A stretch of DNA of 64,000 nucleotides from Dictyostelium discoideum (taxonomy: Eukaryota), in NCBI GenBank assembly GCA_000004695.1, contig CM000150.2, positions 2,496,001 through 2,560,000 of the forward strand. The letters are read 5' to 3'. The notes under the pieces were generated by a model. That model worked only from the letters and a program-made list of their open reading frames with translations, was not told the origin of the DNA and ran no database searches. A program made the translations under genes and the position numbers. Of the stretch, positions 8,700 to 43,393 are shown piece after piece. Numbering within the stretch: the first letter of the stretch is position 1; each line of letters opens with the position of its first letter.

Positions 8700-9723
8700 T
8701 TAATTTTGCCTATTTTTTAAGAATATTGGTTTGGTAATTTAAAAACACAATTTTAAAAATATAAATTTCTTACCAATTGTGACCATTTATTTAAATAAAT
8801 AACTCCATTCCATATATAAGGATCACCATCATTCTTTTTTTTAACCAAAATATATTTATTCATTAGACCATCCAATTATTTAAAAGTTTTGATAGTTTCT
8901 TTTGCCAAAATTTTACTCTCAATTACTTCCAACTTAATGACTCCTGTTTTTTTCTCGTCAACCTTTTTTTTGAGGTCTTCAGAATAGAAAGAGGCTGATG
9001 ATACCCTTTTTGCTCCAGAACCTGGAAAAACTGTATTAATGGTTTGAATATTTAAATTACCATTAATAATATACTTTGGAATAATATGAAGTTCTTCTTT
9101 TGACAAAGTTATACAAATTGAATGCTGCGCGTGTTGATTATCTAAAGTCCCTGTACCGTAATTATAAAGAGGATGATATAAGGTTCTGGAGATTTTGGAA
9201 CACTGTGAATTACATGAATTCCCCCTTCTTCATTCCAAATAAAAAATCCTTTTGCATGTGCCTTTTTTAACACATGAAACATATGAAAAAAAAAGAATTA
9301 ACAACAAATTATAATAAAAAAAAAATAAAAATAAAAATTTAAAATTAACACATACACTATTATCTCCACGGGTTGATCATTATAGGTCAAACTATTATAT
9401 ATAGTTTTACCAGAGCTATTTGGATAACTCTGTTTGTATGTTGATGCAATTGGGTTTGGCTCATGCGGATTCCTAATATTATAATAAGCTAATTCATTAA
9501 TCACCCTATTTAATTCATTATCAGTATAAATAGCACCTCTACTGTGACTCAATTGTTCTAAAACCCACCATTCAACATTCTTTTCTATTTTAACTCCATC
9601 TTTATCTATAAACACCTGACTTTTTGTATAAACATTTTTTGTTGTTATACATTTTGGAGGAACACAATAAATTTGTGATATTAATAAAAATAAATATAGA
9701 ACTATTATATATTTATTTTTCAT
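8700..9723 (-). pseudogene. DNase II-like gene, copy 1: 5' remnant (exon 1 plus disrupted exon 2), 3' exon lost
   Basis: Exon 1 (9298..9723) is intact, with signal peptide MKNKYIIVLYLFLLISQIYC and a GTATGT donor. Exon 2 begins AHAKGFFIWNEEGGIHVIHSVP, then frameshifts (…SPEPYIILFIITVQGL*) relative to copy 3. It carries an in-frame TAA where copy 3 has GAA (…KTFK* versus …KTFKELDG). After the exon-2 donor, the sequence diverges from copies 2 and 3 (duplication boundary near 8650-8700). Confidence 0.5.
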
Positions 9724-10113: not shown

Positions 10114-12047
10114 ATGGTAAAATATAAAATAATAATATCATTTTTATTTTTTATTTTATATTGCAATTGTTTCACATTTGGTAGTTACACATTTGATACA
10201 AAAAATTGGTCAACAAATGGTACACTATCATCATGTGTTTTTTATGATTTTGTAAATAACGATTATTATGATTTAAGAGCTATTGTCCACAATGATCATC
10301 AAGGTCCTTACAAAGCAAGTTTTCCTGCCGAACTTCCTGGTGGAATTCAAACACCTTATACAATGTATTTTAATCCTTGTTTTAATGATAATGTGTGTCC
10401 AGGTGGTCTTTCAGTAGGTTGTATGAGTTATGTGCAAAATTCACAAAAAATTCTTAATTCCGTTGGTTCACTTTCAGAGCCACATTCTATAACATTAAAT
10501 TCAGAAGGTATTTCTATTGAATATCAATCAGCTCTTTTACCATCAACAACATGTGCCTCTAATGGTAACCGTAGAACTTTGGTTTTATTTATTACTTGTA
10601 TCCCAACCGAAACATTTAAAATTATTGGTACTTATAACAGAAGAGTATTATGTGAACATACAATTTATATATCTTCAAAATTAGTTTGTAAAGATAGAGG
10701 AATATTATTTAATCAAGGTCTATTTTATGATTTAACACCAATGAAATTGTAAGTTGTTAAATTCTTTTTTATATTTTTTTTTTATTTTAATTTTTTTTTT
10801 TTTTTGTTTTTAATAAAAAAAAAAAAAACCAAACACGAAATTTTTTGTTTTTAATAAAAATTAAAATATCTAACCACTTTTTTTTCAATTTTTTATTTTT
10901 TTCTTCCCACAGATTAGCAAGCACTTCACACCAAATTACCAACAGTGACCAAACACAAGATATTCTCTTTAATTTATTCGGAAATGTAAATAGATGTGGT
11001 ACTTTCGGTACATCAACATTAAGTTATCAATCATGTATTTTAACAGTTGCTAATAAAGTGATCGATTATAAACTAGATTCAAGATATGCAACATCACCAA
11101 AATCAGTTATGGTAGGATCTCTCAGTCAACCAAGAACAATTACATTTACAAATGATGTAATAACCATAATTTATAGTTCAACAACTGGTTTCACAGAATG
11201 CTCATCAAATGGTAACAAATATTCATCAAAGTATATTTTAATTTGTGATCCATTCACAGAATATTATGTAGATAAATTTACATTAGAATCACAATGTATT
11301 TATCAAATTAAGGTTTATACTAAATACGCATGTCCAACATTACGTTTATTCAAACAAACACAATATTATGACCTTTCACCATTGATGTTGTAAGTATTCA
11401 ATTTATTCTTGTATTTCTTCAAAACAGTTATTAATTATTAATAATAAAATAAATAATAGGGATTCAACAAGAAATTATACAACAAGTCATATTACAGACG
11501 GATATGAGTATAATATTGTATTCAATATTGGTAATAAAGCACAAATGTGTAGCGATGCATTTAATGATTATTATTTTGCTTGTCAATATGATCCACGTTA
11601 TAAAAGTTTTAATCCACTTGCAAAGGCAAGTTTAGGTCAAAGAGTAACATTTGATTTAAATCAAGTTAAATTCGAATATACTTCACCAATGTCAGGTTGT
11701 TTAAGAACTTTTATTATTGTTTTAACTTGTGATGAAAACCAACATTATCAATTAGTTTCAACTTTAGAATCTCCTGCATGTGTATATACAGTAACAATTG
11801 AAACTAAATATGTATGTGAATCAACAATTTATTACAATAGATTCGACTATACATATTATGATATTACTCCAATAAAAACGTAAGTTTTAAATTAAATTTG
11901 AAATTAAATTTAAATATAAATAATAATATTAATAATATTAATAATCTTTATTGTCAACAACTAAAATATTAATTTAATTAGAGAAAAAGATAGTCCAAAT
12001 AAAATAGATATTGTTGTTGGTGGATATCCATATAGAGTAAGTAAATT

Positions 12048-20974: not shown

Positions 20975-21194
20975 CATTATGTCACACCACCCAAAATTCA
21001 ATTCTGAAAACTTTTTTTATTTAATTACCCTTAAGAAAAAATTAAATGTGAAAATAAATGTTATATTTATTTTAGTTTTGTTTTTTTTTTTAAATTATCA
21101 TTAATAATAATGATGCACCATTTGGTATTATCTAATTTTGAAAACTAAAAAAAAAAAAATTTATTTTTGGAATTAGTTAAATTTAAAAAAAAAT

Positions 21195-23300
21195 TTAAAT
21201 TAAAATATAATTAATACTTACACCTTTGGTATATTCACCCAAAACTTTTGTAAATTCCTTAATGGAATTGATGTTTTGTAGATCACCATGTCTATTTTCA
21301 GTTAAGAGAATACAATAGATAAGATGATCTTGGCAATCTGGATGATATTTAATGATTTTTGAGTCTGTATCACTTGGAAAAGCTTTACATATTTTTTTAT
21401 TAATTTCATTATAATCCTTATGACCTTTTTCGCTATCACTTTGATCGCCTTCGATTTTATTTGGGAATTTAAATGGTACTAAATCATTGATTTCAACTTC
21501 TTTCAATTGAATGATGTTTTTATTTTTAATAAATTTCAATTTTTCATAAAGTTCTTTTACTAAATCAATATTTTTTAAATCGATATATATCTTATCTGGG
21601 AAAGGTGTGAGTATTGATGTTGGTTCGATAATGGTATTTTGTGTTAGAGCAGTTACCTTTTTATTATCTCTTGATGAGGTAAGTGTAAATGTTGATTCAA
21701 CATAGATATCTTTAAACAATTGGTAAGATTTGGATTTTTCAAAGCTACAAGTGACATCATCATTATCACATAAAATAATTTCCCCATTGATTGATGGAAA
21801 CACATTGAAATCGAATAACTCTGATTTGTATATATTTTGATCCTTAAGTTGGGTTAATAGTGGAATATAAACATTGTCATAACCATAGTTATATTCATTT
21901 GAAAATAATTTATCTTCATCTTTTTCATTATTGTAAACGATATTAAATGGATTCAAATGATAGTATTTTTCATCATCTCCATAACCTTTTACCTTGGTTT
22001 CAAAGTTTAGCTTTCTGTTACCTAAAACATTAGATCATTTGGATATTTTTCTATTAATTCGTTTAAATTCAACTTTTGACCTGCAATGCTATTTAATCTT
22101 AAAGAAGCTTTTCTAAGATATTGACCATCCTCTGGGTGTCTAATTATACCAACTCTTCTGTAAAAGTATTCAGAAAGATATTTCATTTCGTCACTGCAAA
22201 AAGAACCACCTCCACGTGCCTCTTGCCTTCCATGCCAATTTAAATCACCAAAGCAAATAGTCCCACCACCGCCACCGCTATATGCTTTATCCATATAATT
22301 GATTTGATAAGACATTTTTGAATGGTCACTTCCTGAATCAGAGCTAATAACTGTTGACCAAGGTGTTTCGAATCTGTAAGAAAGATATATTGATACAACT
22401 GCTGGAGACATTTCATTTTTTCCTTTTTCCATCTTTGTTTGAGTATGGACCATTGTTTTAAAATTATTACCATTTTTAAAACTATAGATGTAATGCCAAA
22501 GTATAAAAAATTTAATTTTTTCCTTGTGAGTATTTTCAATTTTATCACTATACTCTTTATAAAGGTGTGTATTTGTTGTTTGAATGAAGTAATCCCCTTT
22601 ATTTTTACTCTCATAAATTTTATTATAGTGAACATTTGTTTCATGAGCTGTATCTGATGATGTAATATTTTTGTTTAGAATTAAATCTGCCTATTTTAAG
22701 AATGTAAGTTTGATGATTTATTAACACAAATTTATAATTAAAATTACTTACCAATTGTGACCATTTATTTAAATAAATAATTCCATCCCATATATCAGGA
22801 TCAACTTTATTCTTTTTTTTAACAAAAATATTATCACTCATTAGATCATCCAATTCTTTAAAAGTTTTGGGAATTTTTGTTTCTAAAATTGAACTATCAA
22901 TTTTTTCCAACTTAATGACTCCTGAGCTTATCTTTTCAACCTCTGTTTGAAGATTTTCGGAATAAGAATCGGCTGATGATACCTTTTTAACCTTTTTACC
23001 ATTTCCTGTTGAAACTGTATTAATGGTTTGAATATTTAAATTACTATAAATAATATACTTTGGAATAATATAAAGTTCTTCTTTTGACAAAGTTATACAA
23101 ATTGAATGTTGAGCATGTTGATGATTTAAAGTATTTTTATCGAAATTAAAAAGAGGTTCATATCCTGTTTCTGGAGATCTTGGAACACTGTGAATTACAT
23201 GAATTCCCCCATTTTCATTCCAAATGAAAAATCCTTTTGCATGTGCCTTTTTTAAATAAATAAATTAAAAAAAAAAAATATGTTAACAAATAATGATAAC

Positions 23301-23734: not shown

Positions 23735-24164
23735 TTTCTTAAGTCTAATGTTATAATGTTTGTTTCAATTTTTTAAAATTGGGTGTGTTTTTGCGAAAAA
23801 AAAAAAAAAAAAAAAAAAAATGGCTTTGTCGTCAACAAAAAAGAAAAAAAACTAAAATTGGATCATTTAAAATAAAATAAAAAAACGAACGAAAATATTT
23901 TTTTTTAATCGTTTTTAGATGGTTTTACCACTCCTTTGATTATTGAAAATCTTTTTTAAATATTTTTAGATTTTTTTTTTTTTATTTTTTTCGACCCATT
24001 ATTTTATAAAAAAAAAAATAATAAAAATTACCCCCACAAACCGCTTTTTTTTTTTTTTTTCACAAAGCCTGGTTTTTAATTTTTTTAACACTTTTTGGCT
24101 TTGCATCTTTATCGCTTAAAATACGGTTTGGAAAATACAACATTTTTTTTTTAATCAACCATAC

Positions 24165-24221: not shown

Positions 24222-25808
24222 TAAAATTTTAAATAGTTATATCATTTTTATTATTTATTTTATATTTTAATTGTTTCACATTTGGTAGTTACACATTTGA
24301 TACAAAAAATTGGTCAACAAATGGTACACTATCATCATGTGTTTTTTATGATTTTGTAAATAACGATTATTATGATTTAAGAGCTATTGTCTATCCTGAT
24401 CATCGAGGTTCCCACAGAGCAAGTTTCACAGCTGAGCTTTCTGGTGGAATTCAAACACCATATACAATATATTTTAATCCTTGTTTTAATGATCATATGT
24501 GTCCAGGTGGTCTTTCAGTAGGTTGTATGCAAAAATAGAGGAGTATTATTTAATCAAGGTCTATTTTATGATTTAACACCAATGAAATTGTAAGTTATTA
24601 AATTCTTTTTCATATTTATTTTTTTATATTTTTTTTTTTTAAAATAATTATCAAAAAATAAAAAAAAAAAAGAACCAAACACAAAATTTCAAAATAAAAA
24701 AATCTAATCTTTTTTCACTTTTTTTTATTTTTTTTTAATTTTTTTATTTTTATTTTTTTTTCCCACAGATTAACAAGCACTTCACACCAAATCACCAATG
24801 ATGACCATACAAAAGATATTCTCTTTAATTTATTCGGAAATGTAAATAGATGTGGTACTTTCGGTACATCAACATTAAGTTATCAATCATGTATTTTAAC
24901 AGTTGCTAATAAAGCGATCAATTATAAACTAGATTCAAGATATGCAACATCACCAAAATCAGTTATGGTAGGATCTCTCAGTCAACCAAGAACAATTACA
25001 TTTACAAATGATGTAATAACCATAATTTATAGTTCAACAACTGGTTTCACAGAATGCTCATCAAATGGTAACAAATATTCATCAAAGTATATTTTAATTT
25101 GTGATCCATTCACAGAATATTATGTAGATAAATTTACATTAGAATCACAATGTATTTATCAAATCAAAGTTTATACTAAATACGCATGTCCAACATTACG
25201 TTTATTCAAACAAACACAATATTATGATCTTTCGCCATTGATGTTGTAAGTATTCAATTTAATTAAAAAACTTTTTTGGTGTTTTATTCTTTTGCGCTTA
25301 TTAATTATTAATAATAAAATAAATAATAGGGATTCAGCAAGAAATTATACAACAAGTCACTTTACAGACGGATCTGAGTTTTTTATTGTATTCAATATTG
25401 GTAATAAAGCACAAATGTGTAGCGATGCATTAAATGATTATTATTTTTCTTGTCAATACGAACCACGTCAAAAATTTTTTTATCCACTTGCAAAGGCAAG
25501 TTTAGGTCATAGAGTAACATTTGATTTAAATCAAGTTAAATTTGAATATACTTCACCATCAACAACAACTTGCTCATCAAATTCCTATAAAAGAGATCTT
25601 ATTGTTATTTTAAATTGTGATGAAAACCAACATTATCAATTAGTTTCAACTTTAGAATCTCCAACATGTGTATATACAATAACAATTAAAACTAAATATG
25701 TATGTGAATCAACAATTTATTACAATAGAATTAACTATACCTATTATGATATTACTCCAATAAAAACGTAAGTTTTAAATTAAATTTAATTATAAATTAT
25801 AAATTATA

Positions 25809-28800: not shown

Positions 28801-29629
28801 TAAGATGTATGGTCGATTATTCAAGATTAACTTTACAAGTCGATAATCTTTACGGTCAAGATATAGTATGTATTGATGGTAATGGAATTTCATCAATTTT
28901 CAACGAATCATTCTCTTGTAAACCTGATCTTATTAACGATGGTATGATATGTGCTCAACAACATCAAGATGGAACAAATTCAACAACCACATTTGGTAAT
29001 TCAACATTAATTTGTCATATTGACTCAACAAAATCATGTGAAATTTCACCACCATTCATTATACCATCCGATCCAATTGAAGAGATGAATATTCAAATAT
29101 TTTAGAATGTCAATATAATCTCAATGAAAATTCATTATCAACACACTCTAATAATAGTCCACTAAGATGTTATAATAATGAAACTGAAAATTACTTCATT
29201 ATGAATACTACACTTTCATGCTCAAAAGATGAATCATTAAGTCAAGATAAAGATACGATTTCTTGTTTAGCAGATACAGATGATACTCAAATCTTTTTCT
29301 ATAAGAACTCAATTACATGCATTACAGATTATCCATACTATAGATGTACAATGAAATCTCAACCATCACCAGATGATAACATAATTCCAAAACCAACATT
29401 ACCACCAATTCCATCAATTGATGATGATTCCACATGTATTTATGATTCAGCCAATCCATATTCAATAGATCTCCAACTAACGACTGGAACTAATGCTAAA
29501 TGTCCAAAAAATGAAAAAGAACTTCGTTATGATCTTTCAACTTCTCTAACATGCACTGATTATATCACACTTAAAAACTCCACTTATTCAATTTCATATT
29601 CAAATTACATTTGCATTAAAACAAAATAA
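24222..29629 (+). pseudogene. MRH/IPT receptor-like gene, copy 2: decayed, internally deleted remnant
   Basis: Exon-1 homologue has a 1-nt insertion giving ATG GTA AAA TTT TAA, plus a roughly 300-bp internal deletion (24222..24590). Exons 2 and 3 remain (24965..25249, 25292..25771). The exon-5 homologue is fragmented by frameshifts and deletions (26163..27182 and following). The whole region equivalent to 14640..18640 of copy 1 is missing. The C-terminal fragments 28407..29105 and 29201..29629 carry a precise deletion of the Ala/Thr block (…EFNV|TATAILISGG…). Confidence 0.6.
25811..25870. repeat. (AAT)n microsatellite in intron 3 of receptor-like copy 2
   Basis: About 20 perfect ATA/AAT triplets. 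The orthologous intron of copy 1 (11885..11975) has only a few. Copy 3 has about 40 (34897..35019). Confidence 0.8.
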
Positions 29630-29953
29630 AAACAATTAAAAAATTTTAAAAAACAAAATGATATAATAATTTAATGAAATAATTTAATTACTATTTTTAC
29701 TATTTTTTTTTATTTTCGAAAAACTGTAATTAAATTATTTCATTAAATCATTATGTCATACCACCCAAAATTCAATTCTGAAAACTTTTTTTTTATTTAA
29801 TTACCCTTAAGAAAAAATTAAATGTGAAAATAAATGTTATATTTATTTTAGTATTGTTTTATTAATTTAAATTATTAATGCACCGTTTATCTAATTTTGA
29901 AAACTAAAAAAAAAAAAATTTATTTTTGGAATTAGTTAAATTTAAAAAAAAAT

Positions 29954-32497
29954 TTAAATTAAAATATAATTAATACTTACACCTTTGGTATATTCACCCA
30001 AAACTTTTATTAATTCATCATTGGATTTGATGTTTTGTAGATCACCATGTCTATTTTCAGTTAAGAGAATACAATAGATAAGATGATCTTGGCAATCTGG
30101 ATGATATTTAATGATTTTTGAGTCTGTATCACTTGGAAAAGCTTTACATATATTTTTATTAATTTCATTATAATCCTTATCATCATGACCTTCTTCGCTA
30201 TCACTTTGATCGCCTTCGATTTTATTTGGGAATTTAAATGGTTCTAAATCATCTTTGATTTTAACTTCTTTCAATTGAATGATGTTTTTATTTTTAATAA
30301 ATTTCAATTTTTCATAAAGTTCTTTTACTAAATCAATATTTTTTAAATCGATATATATCTTATCTGGGAAAGGTGTGAGTATTGATGTTGGTTCGATAAT
30401 GGTATTTTGTGTTAGAGCAGTTACCTTTTTATTCTTTTTTGATGAGGTAAGTGTAAATGTTGATTCAACATAGATATCTTTAAACAATTGGTAAGATTTG
30501 GATTTTTCAAAGCTACAAGTGACATCATTATCATCACATAAAATAATTTCCCCATTGATTGATGGAAACACATTGAAATCGAATAACTCTGATTTGTATT
30601 TATTTGTAGTTTGATCCTTAAGTTGAGTTAATAATGGAATGTAAACATTGTCATAACCATAGTTATATTCATTTGAAAATAATTTATCTTTTTCATTATT
30701 GTAAACGATAATAAATGGATTCAAATGATAGTATTTTTCATCATCTTCATAACCTTTTACCTTGGTTTCAAAGTCTAGCTTTCTGATACCTAAAATTTCT
30801 TTTAGACGCTGTGGATATTTATCTATTAATCCGTTTAAATTCAACTTTTGACCTGCAATGCTATTTAATCTTAAAGAAGCTTTTATAAGATATTGACCTT
30901 TATCTGGGTGTCTAATTATACCAACTCTTCTGTAAAAGTATTCAGAAAGATATTTCATTTCGTCACTGCAAAAAGAACCACCTCCACGTGCCTCTTGCCT
31001 TCCATGCCAATTTAAATCACCAAAGCAAATAGTTCCACCACCGCCACCGCTATATGCTTTATCCATATTATTGAATTGATAAGACATTTTTGAATGGTCA
31101 CTTCCTGAATCAGAGCTAATAACTTCTGACCAAGGTGTTTCGAATCTGTAAGAAAGATAAACTGATTCAACTGCTGGAGATATTGCATTTAGTCCATTTT
31201 CGATCTTTGTTTGAGTATGGACCATTGTTTTAAAATTATTACCATTTTTAAAATTATCGATGTAATGCCAAAGTATAAAAAATTTAATTTTTTCCTTGTG
31301 AGCTTTGTCAATTTTTTTATTATACGCTTTATAAAGGTTTTTATTTGTTGTTTGAATGAAATAATCCCCTTTATTTTTACTCTCATAAATTTTATTATAG
31401 TGAACATTTGTTTCATGAGCTGTATCTGATGATGTAATATCTTTGTTTAGAATTAAAACTGCCTATTTTAAGAATGTAAGTTTGATGATTTATTAACACA
31501 AATTTATAATTAAAATTACTTACCAATTGTGACCATTTATTTAAATAAATAATTCCATCCCATATATCAGGATCACCATCATTCTTTTTTTCAACAAAAA
31601 TATATTCACTCATTAGACCATCCAATTCTTTAAAAGTTTTGGGAATTTTTGTTGCTAAAATTGTACTATCAATTTCTTCCAACTTAATGACTCCTGAGCT
31701 TATCTTTTCAACCTTGGTTTTGAGATTTCTGGAATAAGAATCGGCTGATGATACCTTTTTAACCTTTTGACCATTTCCTGTTGAAACTGTATTAATGGTT
31801 TGAATATTTAAATTACTATAAATAATATACTTTGGAATAATATAAAGTTCTTCTTTTGACAAAGTTATACAAATTGAATGTTGAGCATGTTGATTTTTTA
31901 AAGTCTTTTTATTGAAATTAAAAAGAGGTTCATATCCTTTTTCTGGAGATTGTGGAACACTGTGAATTACATGAATTCCCCCTTCTTCATTCCAAATGAA
32001 AAATCCTTTTGCATGTGCCTTTTTTAAATAAATAAATTAAAAAAAAAAAATATGTTAACAAATAATGATAAACAAAAAAAAAAAAAAAAAAAAAAAAAAG
32101 TTAAATAATAAAAACAAACACTATCGTAACTACCACTGGGCTGATCATTATAAGTCAAACTATTATATATAATTTTGTTGTCAGATTTATTTGGTAAACT
32201 CTGTTTGTATGTAGATGTAATAGGGTTTGGTTCTTTTGGATCTCTAATATTATAATTTGCAATTTCATTTATCTCTGAACTTCCTCCTTTTAATGTGTTA
32301 TCAGTATAAATAGCCCCTTTACTGTGACTTAATTGTTCTAAAAACCACCATTCGACATTCTTTTCTATTGTAACTCCATCCCCAAATACTTGACTATCCT
32401 TGTAAATATTTTTTGTTGTTATACATTTTGGAGGAACACAATAAATATGTGATATTAATACGAATAAATATAGAAAAATAATATATTTATTTCTCAT
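29954..32497 (-). CDS. DNase II-family nuclease (secreted/lysosomal-type) with about 330-aa C-terminal extension; copy 3, the only intact copy. Exons 32120..32497, 31524..32018, 29954..31462 (about 793 aa)
   Basis: Signal peptide MRNKYIIFLYLFVLISHIYC. Exon 2 carries the first PLD-like HxK motif in the DNase II context (AHAKGFFIWNEEGGIHVIHSVPQSP; compare mammalian HTKG…GFWLVHSVPNFP). Exon 3 carries the second (DSGSDHSKMSYQFNNMDKAYSGGGGGTICFGDLNWHGRQEARGGGSFC; compare DHSKW…C[VI]GD[ML]NR…RGGG[TS]LC). Donors are GTTTGT (weak) and GTAAGT. A roughly 330-aa unclassified C-terminal region ends …GEYTKGVSINYILI*. Confidence 0.6.
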
Positions 32498-33045
32498 TTT
32501 CTTAGATCTATTGTCTAATATTATAATGTTTCAATTTTTTAATGGTATAAAAAAAAATTGGGTGTGTTTTTGCGAAAAAAAAAAAAAAAAAAAAAAATAG
32601 CTTTGTCGTCAACAAAAAAGAAAAAAATCTAAAATTGGATCATTTAAAATAAAATAAAAAAACGAACGAAAATATTTTTTTTTAATCGTTTTTAGATGAT
32701 TTTCCCACTCCTTTGATTATTGAAAATCTTTTTTAAATATTTTTAGATTTTTTTTTTTTATTTTTTTCGACCCATTATTTTATAAAAAAAAAATAATAAA
32801 AATTACCCCACAAACCGCTTAGTTTTTTTTTTTTTTTTCACAAAGCCTGGTTTTTATTTTTTGTGACACTTTTTAGCTTTGCATCTTTGTCGCTTTAAAT
32901 ACGGTTTGGAAAATACAACATTTTTTTTTTAATCAACCACTTTAAAATACGGTTTGGAAAATACTATATTTTTTTTTTCAATCAACCACACTCTTTTTTT
33001 TTTTTTTTTTTAAAAAAATAATCATATTGAAATTAAAAAAAAAAA
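32498..33045. promoter_or_regulatory. shared divergent intergenic/promoter region between DNase II-like gene (minus) and receptor-like gene (plus), copy 3
   Basis: 548 bp between two start codons facing away from each other. Contains a tandemly duplicated roughly 50-bp motif (aaatacggtttggaaaatac[a/t]a[c/t]attttttttt[t]aatcaacca, 32891..32990). It is single-copy in copy 2 (24117..24170). Copy 1 (9724..10113) instead has a different duplicated roughly 65-bp block (gaatctatttttgcattgaaatctaaatttggatttttttaaaaaaaaacgaacgaatttt, twice). Confidence 0.4.

Positions 33046-43393
<10,348 letters not shown>

Follow-up and report, generated by a model that had tools for sequence, protein, structure and literature searches.

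What does a nuclease gene encode when it runs on for several hundred residues beyond the point at which its enzyme family ends? The question is raised by a minus-strand gene in a 64,000-nucleotide stretch of Dictyostelium discoideum DNA (GenBank assembly GCA_000004695.1, contig CM000150.2, positions 2,496,001 to 2,560,000; hereafter the window), in which the two HxK motifs of deoxyribonuclease II (DNase II) are joined to a long C-terminal region. As a rule, DNase II is small, lysosomal, and encoded by one gene copy; the subfamily represented here has gained an internal insertion and a module of 320 residues, predicted to be folded, that is without relatives elsewhere. The reading that we favor, with a probability of roughly 0.6, is that the product is a 798-residue protein of the secretory pathway belonging to a Dictyostelium-restricted DNase II subfamily and combining a predicted acid, metal-independent endonuclease with a lineage-specific module. 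Judged by its sequence, the protein is a lineage-specific form within an enzyme family that is well known, and databases already list its kind as uncharacterized proteins.

The assignment to DNase II is carried by the catalytic core. Against the Pfam family PF03265 (DNase_II), the full-length protein scores 123.4 bits (E 1.5e-35, cut-off 23); in piecewise scans, residues 45-201 alone align with profile positions 7-163 (95 bits) and residues ~409-463 alone with positions 266-312, the region of the second motif reaching 25.6 bits. This match is common to the protein and to canonical DNase II, such as human DNASE2, C. elegans NUC-1, the B. thailandensis enzyme, and PDB 5i3e/5unb, and so are the contexts in which the motifs are embedded, YNDQP...(A/G)H(A/S)KG...HS.P and DHSK...C.GD.N...RGG..C. 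The first motif, AHAKG, aligns with AHAKG or GHSKG of canonical enzymes (fish and metagenomic DNase II), and the region of the second, which continues into C437-F-G-D-L-N442 and then R450-G-G-G, aligns with DHAKW...CVGDINR...RGGG of 5i3e as well as with canonical sequences. Across 28 family sequences, H128, K130, H414, S415, K416, C437, R450, G451, G452, and C456 do not vary, and the other residues of the second motif and of the two segments after it vary little or not at all. Without catalytic constraint, it would be difficult to account for such invariance of the histidine, lysine, serine, and arginine residues among paralogs that are otherwise ~30% identical. The first-pass annotation of this DNA, which had recognized a gene of the DNase II family, its two HxK motifs preserved, behind a secretory-type N-terminus, is borne out by these matches and by a hydrophobic N-terminal segment (residues 3-24), which leads into a conserved PP(K/R)C and conforms to the family pattern MK..II..L.LF...C..PPRC. 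Such a signal-like N-terminus would correspond to the signal peptide of canonical eukaryotic DNase II, and a scan of the whole protein revealed no second hydrophobic or membrane-like segment. An AlphaFold2 model of the full-length protein, built from the 28 family sequences (predicted local distance difference test, pLDDT, 76.6; predicted template-modeling score, pTM, 0.80), places the core in the solved DNase II fold, as far as a predicted structure can tell. At the sequence level the distance is considerable: phmmer of the protein against PDB sequences gave chance matches and did not reach 5i3e, and the family profile reaches 5i3e weakly (E 0.047).

Despite the shared core, the protein departs from canonical DNase II in size and layout. 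Canonical enzymes are single-domain proteins of ~350 residues that end 20-35 residues past RGG..C, whereas the protein studied here is more than twice as long and runs ~320 residues further; they lack both this C-terminal module and an insertion of ~100 residues between the motifs. The catalytic histidines H128 and H414 are 286 residues apart, compared with 179 for H100/H279 of B. thailandensis DNase II (PMC5449587) and ~180 implied by the Pfam profile, so that the earlier statement that a spacing of ~280 residues matches DNase II does not hold; the excess of ~100 residues is due to the family-specific insertion. Within the core, conservation is lowest in this insertion, which is predicted to form helices at residues 215-265 and lies in a segment (residues 205-377) that gave no Pfam match when scanned alone. 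The lysosomal exonucleases PLD3 and PLD4 belong to another family, distinguished by HKD motifs, a type II membrane anchor, and exonuclease activity.

The C-terminal extension has no Pfam match when the tail is scanned alone, and 18 aligned family tails gave chance matches of single members only. Its fold, which is predicted with confidence, consists of a β-sandwich at about residues 520-650 followed by an α/β part. When a profile of the extension was searched against 1.84 billion representative proteins, six proteins were found, all matched at the same C-terminal position; five of the six were already counted in the family, and P0033, the weakest match (E 8e-06), has DNase II motifs upstream as well. 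No stand-alone tail protein appeared among these representatives. By these searches, the extension is confined to this Dictyostelium family, always C-terminal to the core. Cys 600 and Cys 607 never vary in the alignment of 28 sequences, with Cys 730, 748, and 755 almost as constant, a pattern that fits a disulfide-bonded extracytoplasmic domain. Conservation is uneven, with 79-96% identity at residues 521-620 among close paralogs and variable parts at residues 621-660 and in an acidic loop at residues 701-720. The extension is net acidic in most family members, which argues against a general DNA clamp or simple DNA binder. An origin of the tail by internal duplication, as a diverged copy of the core, was also considered and rejected, the hhalign probability of tail against core being only 0.1.

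The fusion of core and tail, which the first-pass annotation thought would be unusual, is not an isolated case but the regular layout in a family of many genes. With the protein and a profile of its core as queries, ~40 proteins were retrieved, ~35 of them full-length and all from Dictyostelium (D. discoideum, D. cf. discoideum, D. citrinum, D. firmibasis, D. dimigraforme, and D. purpureum); the next matches beyond the family are ordinary fish and metagenomic DNase II at 43-63 bits. The AX4 members DDB_G0270642, DDB_G0290837, DDB_G0291033, and DDB_G0267616 are listed in databases as uncharacterized DNase_II-domain proteins, and the truncated DDB_G0270848 (514 residues) and DDB_G0270476 are likewise annotated as uncharacterized. 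The former four share the end-to-end architecture and the invariant residues of the studied protein, DDB_G0270642 being 72% identical to it and the others 28-29%; the distant subfamily differs in lacking the acidic loop at residues 701-720 and in ending with an acidic proline-rich tail. The studied copy is a strain-specific paralog, no identical AX4 protein having been found in the protein search. A literature search for papers on five AX4 gene identifiers found none, although 'deoxyribonuclease II activity' is among the Gene Ontology terms enriched in dictyostelid lineage-specific expansions (PMC8535579). A comparable case is Trichinella spiralis, which has an expanded family of secreted DNase II-like or plancitoxin-1-like proteins, some active and some inactive (PMC4148230, PMC10249883, PMC11287892). 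Both are lineage-specific expansions encoding secretory proteins, but that of Trichinella arose independently in an unrelated organism, a parasite rather than a free-living bacterivore, and the Trichinella papers mention no such C-terminal module, a distinction drawn from descriptions and not from direct comparison. In D. firmibasis (CM069767.1, L006 665-12454), three DNase II-like genes encoding 734, 741, and 739 residues form a tandem array without a TIG partner of the kind described below, with near-identical small minus-strand genes (244 and 230 residues) between them.

If the protein works as its relatives do, it would act in an acidic compartment, the phagolysosome, or outside the cell after secretion. 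By analogy with the DNase II/PLD mechanism (PMC5449587), attack by H128 on the DNA phosphodiester would yield a phospho-histidine intermediate, from which H414, by activating water, would release the product; no metal would be required, and cleavage would leave 3'-phosphate ends. Since the amoeba feeds on bacteria, its prey or extracellular DNA would be the likely substrate. More tentatively, the tail may serve to bind proteins or glycans, in sorting, or in regulation, and in D. discoideum it might act together with the product of a divergently transcribed gene, a large membrane protein with mannose-6-phosphate-receptor-homology (MRH) and TIG domains.

A number of observations weigh against this view. 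In B. thailandensis DNase II, a conserved W239-W282-R298 interaction may align the second HxK motif (PMC5449587). In the protein studied here this stack is altered, with Met417 in place of Trp after K416 and Trp443 in place of Arg after N442; the residue after the lysine of the second motif is Met, Ile, Leu, or Phe in paralogs. Given these altered residues beside the second motif, predicted catalytic competence is likely but not assured, and some Trichinella DNase II-like proteins are without DNase activity (PMC10249883). The ratio of nonsynonymous to synonymous substitution rates (dN/dS) between paralogs is ~0.75 in core and tail alike, by a rough Nei-Gojobori estimate that is crude given so biased a base composition; taken as it stands, it indicates fast evolution or relaxed constraint. 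Since the family also includes frameshifted and truncated copies, constraint may indeed be relaxed. Moreover, the protein has a single N-glycosylation sequon, which gives little support to a link with mannose-phosphate sorting, and the pairing with an MRH/TIG gene is absent at DDB_G0267616, the D. firmibasis array, the D. purpureum loci, and one D. dimigraforme locus, as far as loci were inspected.

Part of this evidence would be expected if the DNase II fold had been kept merely as a scaffold, for DNA binding or some other non-catalytic role, in a family that is drifting. Replacement of the conserved Trp and Arg beside the second motif (PMC5449587), separation of the motifs by a 100-residue insertion, the high dN/dS, and the damaged copies (DDB_G0270848, DDB_G0270476, and the first two copies in the window) all point in that direction, with the inactive Trichinella proteins as a precedent (PMC10249883). 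Yet drift of this kind should not have spared the His and Lys of both motifs, the Ser beside them, and the Arg of RGGG while paralogs fell to ~30% identity, nor left the motif-proximal blocks as the most conserved parts of the protein, and a pseudo-enzyme is accordingly considered unlikely. A different possibility leaves the enzyme active and treats the tail as a removable pro- or sorting region, cleaved in the endolysosome to give a DNase II of canonical size. Proteolytic processing of mammalian DNase II has been described (PMC3596287), the model loses confidence at the junction of core and tail (pLDDT 64-69 at residues 471-490), the tail is acidic, and the frameshifted DDB_G0270848 ends exactly at the boundary. 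However, a full-length pTM of 0.80 suggests that tail and core are packed in a fixed manner, the tail would be a folded, two-part, cysteine-conserving domain rather than a short propeptide, and no cleavage motif was identified, which makes removal of the tail improbable. A further reading, in which the tail would be a gene of its own downstream of the core or the fusion an artefact of mis-prediction, has nothing in its favor beyond the caveat of the first-pass annotation; it is scarcely credible and was rejected: the second motif (residues 413-416) and residues 476-785 of the tail lie within one stop-free exon, paralogs at 26-31% identity align across 93-98% of the query, every full-length member, in six species, shows the fusion, and a stand-alone tail is missing from the representatives searched. 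The first-pass view that the long C-terminal region is part of the same gene, and of no recognizable family, is therefore upheld.

The remaining alternative concerns the genomic neighborhood. The window contains three minus-strand DNase II-like loci, ~9723..8738 (partial), 23734..~21100, and 32497..29862, each head-to-head with a large plus-strand MRH/TIG gene (starts at 10114, 24218, and 33046). The MRH/TIG partner has several MRH-like repeats, more than 10 TIG repeats, hydrophobic segments, and a Cys-rich tail, and one of its open reading frames (ORFs), 34371..34862, matches PF13015 (PRKCSH_1) at 27.1 bits, above the gathering cut-off of 23, in addition to a weak match to ATG27. A head-to-head MRH/TIG gene also adjoins DDB_G0270642 and the distant paralog DDB_G0291033; in the latter case, the MRH-like and TIG regions shared by the partner are ~30% identical. 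One may thus envisage a two-gene conflict or recognition module, in which a secreted nuclease effector with a variable tail docks onto, or is delivered by, the neighboring protein; differences in copy number between strains, the high dN/dS of paralogs, and repeated elements in the shared spacer would agree with it. The idea is nevertheless a doubtful one, as the pairing is missing at the four other loci or species named above, no immunity-like partner was identified, tandem duplication alone would explain three adjacent units, and the literature search found no link. Analogies for such a module would be polymorphic nuclease toxins and tgrB1/tgrC1, the allorecognition genes. A pair of the latter type consists of two head-to-head genes with a short common spacer that stay together as a unit when duplicated; this arrangement recurs here at the window units, DDB_G0270642, and DDB_G0291033, but not at DDB_G0267616 or the loci of other species. 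Both tgrB1 and tgrC1 encode TIG-domain transmembrane proteins, whereas the DNase II-like partner has neither a TIG domain nor a membrane segment beyond its N-terminus. A pair of the tgrB1/tgrC1 type would further be expected to show extreme allelic polymorphism between strains; the comparison made here was between paralogs and gave the rough dN/dS of ~0.75. The association with MRH/TIG genes is suggestive within D. discoideum and is not a family-defining feature.

For the subfamily as a whole, multiplication has produced strain-variable tandem arrays, in D. discoideum often beside a giant MRH/TIG gene. Should the proteins prove active, they would be candidates for the digestion of prey or extracellular DNA by a bacterivorous amoeba, and the tail would offer a case study of an orphan domain modifying an old enzyme. 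The practical value is modest and consists of a corrected gene model, a defined family, and constructs of the core alone and of the full-length protein. Wider interest is limited to the idea of a receptor-nuclease pair, which is not established. In its broadest version, the nuclease and the head-to-head MRH/TIG protein would make up a co-duplicating, fast-evolving two-component system of D. discoideum with the tail as a docking or specificity module, the partner either delivering the nuclease to prey or rivals or serving as an MRH-type sorting receptor for a lysosomal hydrolase; we hold this to be a long shot. To our knowledge, no mannose-phosphate receptor has been described in D. discoideum. 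It is mainly the orphan domain and the recurrent MRH/TIG partner that merit modest follow-up.

The gene model underlying these statements was obtained by three-frame translation of the minus strand, splice-site analysis, and matching to the database protein P0001, with which the translated model is 100% identical and which is annotated in a wild strain of D. discoideum as the hypothetical protein ACTFIT_007952. Translation and splice sites reproduce the ATG at 32497, the first two exons, and the start of exon 3 at 31462 as they had been drawn before. At the 3' end the model differs: what had been described as a three-exon gene stopping at 29954 has a fourth exon, and that stop falls within intron 3, the coding end being 29862. 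This is evident from a consensus GTAAGT donor at 29980 directly after ...GEYTKG, from the C-terminus of P0001, which reads ...GEYTKGFSKLDKRCINNLN, and from the paralogs, in which the Cys of exon 4 is kept near the C-terminus and the short tail end is likewise conserved. The open frame of exon 3, ~500 codons without a stop in DNA of ~27% G+C, is not a product of chance. Coordinates are collected in Table 1.

Table 1. Features of the DNase II-like gene and its upstream spacer, in window coordinates (aa, amino acid residues; nt, nucleotides).
Feature	Position	Strand	Remarks
Gene, four exons, 798 aa + stop	29862..32497	minus	translated exon model exactly equals database protein P0001
Exon 1, aa 1-126	32120..32497	minus	signal-like N-terminus and N-terminal β-strands of DNase II domain
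Signal-like hydrophobic N-terminus, ~aa 1-20	32438..32497	minus	within exon 1
DNase II / PLD-superfamily catalytic core (predicted), aa 21-475	30911..32437	minus	two introns inside
Intron 1, 101 nt	32019..32119	minus	GTTTGT...AAAAG, very A+T-rich; frame and family alignment stay continuous across junction
Exon 2, aa 127-291	31524..32018	minus	opens with first HxK motif
First HxK motif, A127-H128-A129-K130 (AHAKG)	32007..32018	minus	very start of exon 2; AHAKGFFIWNEEGGIHVIHSVPQSP
Family-specific insertion, mostly helical (predicted), ~aa 205-300	31436..31784	minus	intron 2 inside; canonical sequences gapped opposite
Intron 2, 61 nt	31463..31523	minus	GTAAGT...ATAG; splice-site analysis
Exon 3, aa 292-785	29981..31462	minus	uninterrupted; second HxK motif, RGGG segment, nearly whole C-terminal extension
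Second HxK motif, D413-H414-S415-K416	31088..31099	minus	exon 3; DHSKMSY...TICFGDLNWHGRQEARGGGSFC
C-terminal extension, aa 476-798 (~320 residues)	29865..30910	minus	intron 3 inside
Intron 3, 77 nt	29904..29980	minus	GTAAGT...TTTAG; in-frame TAA at 29954-29956 inside
Exon 4, 13 codons, aa 786-798, + TAA	29862..29903	minus	FSKLDKRCINNLN
Intergenic spacer, 548 bp	32498..33045		common to studied gene and divergent MRH/TIG gene (start 33046)

The spacer between the studied gene and its MRH/TIG neighbor contains two copies, spaced 48 bp apart, of a 37-nucleotide direct repeat (32894-32930 and 32942-32978), of which an 18-nucleotide core, ATACGGTTTGGAAAATAC, also occurs at 24121-24138 in the spacer of the neighboring pair, giving three matches against 0.02 expected. 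The corresponding spacer at the distant paralog (L003 9620-9790) has other direct repeats and lacks this core, and the core was therefore dismissed as an independent sign of shared regulation. The three tandem DNase II-like/MRH-TIG units together occupy window positions 8738-43393, and their copies are in different states. In the partial copy (8738-9723), about the first 300 residues only are encoded; it probably corresponds to the 419-residue ACTFIT_007954 (P0039) and resembles the truncated DDB_G0270476. The second copy (21100-22690) has a frameshift near 22030, at the boundary of core and tail (...KYPNDLMF*), and thus the same end as DDB_G0270848; its tail stays open for ~270 codons in another frame, and the strain annotation (775 residues) bridges the shift by an intron. 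This copy may be a recent pseudogene or the source of a natural core-only protein.

On the side of the partner, the N-terminal part of the MRH/TIG gene (33256-34862, and also 10447-11880 and 24926-25768) has three or four tandem MRH-related repeats, which puts a multi-MRH protein beside the gene of a hydrolase of lysosomal type. A database search with its first exon (33046-33681) returned no match and missed even its own 3197-residue protein, probably owing to a limitation of the word index. The ORF at 29201-29629, annotated as a gene of 142 residues, is nearly identical to the Cys-rich end of the 3197-residue TIG gene (ORF 38951..43393), and probably belongs, as the final exon, to the 1321-residue TIG gene upstream of it rather than being a gene of its own. 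A 41-nucleotide inverted repeat (29658-29759), 90% complementary and with a 20-nucleotide loop, lies immediately beyond the stop codon of the DNase II-like gene, in the A+T-rich DNA that separates the two convergent genes.

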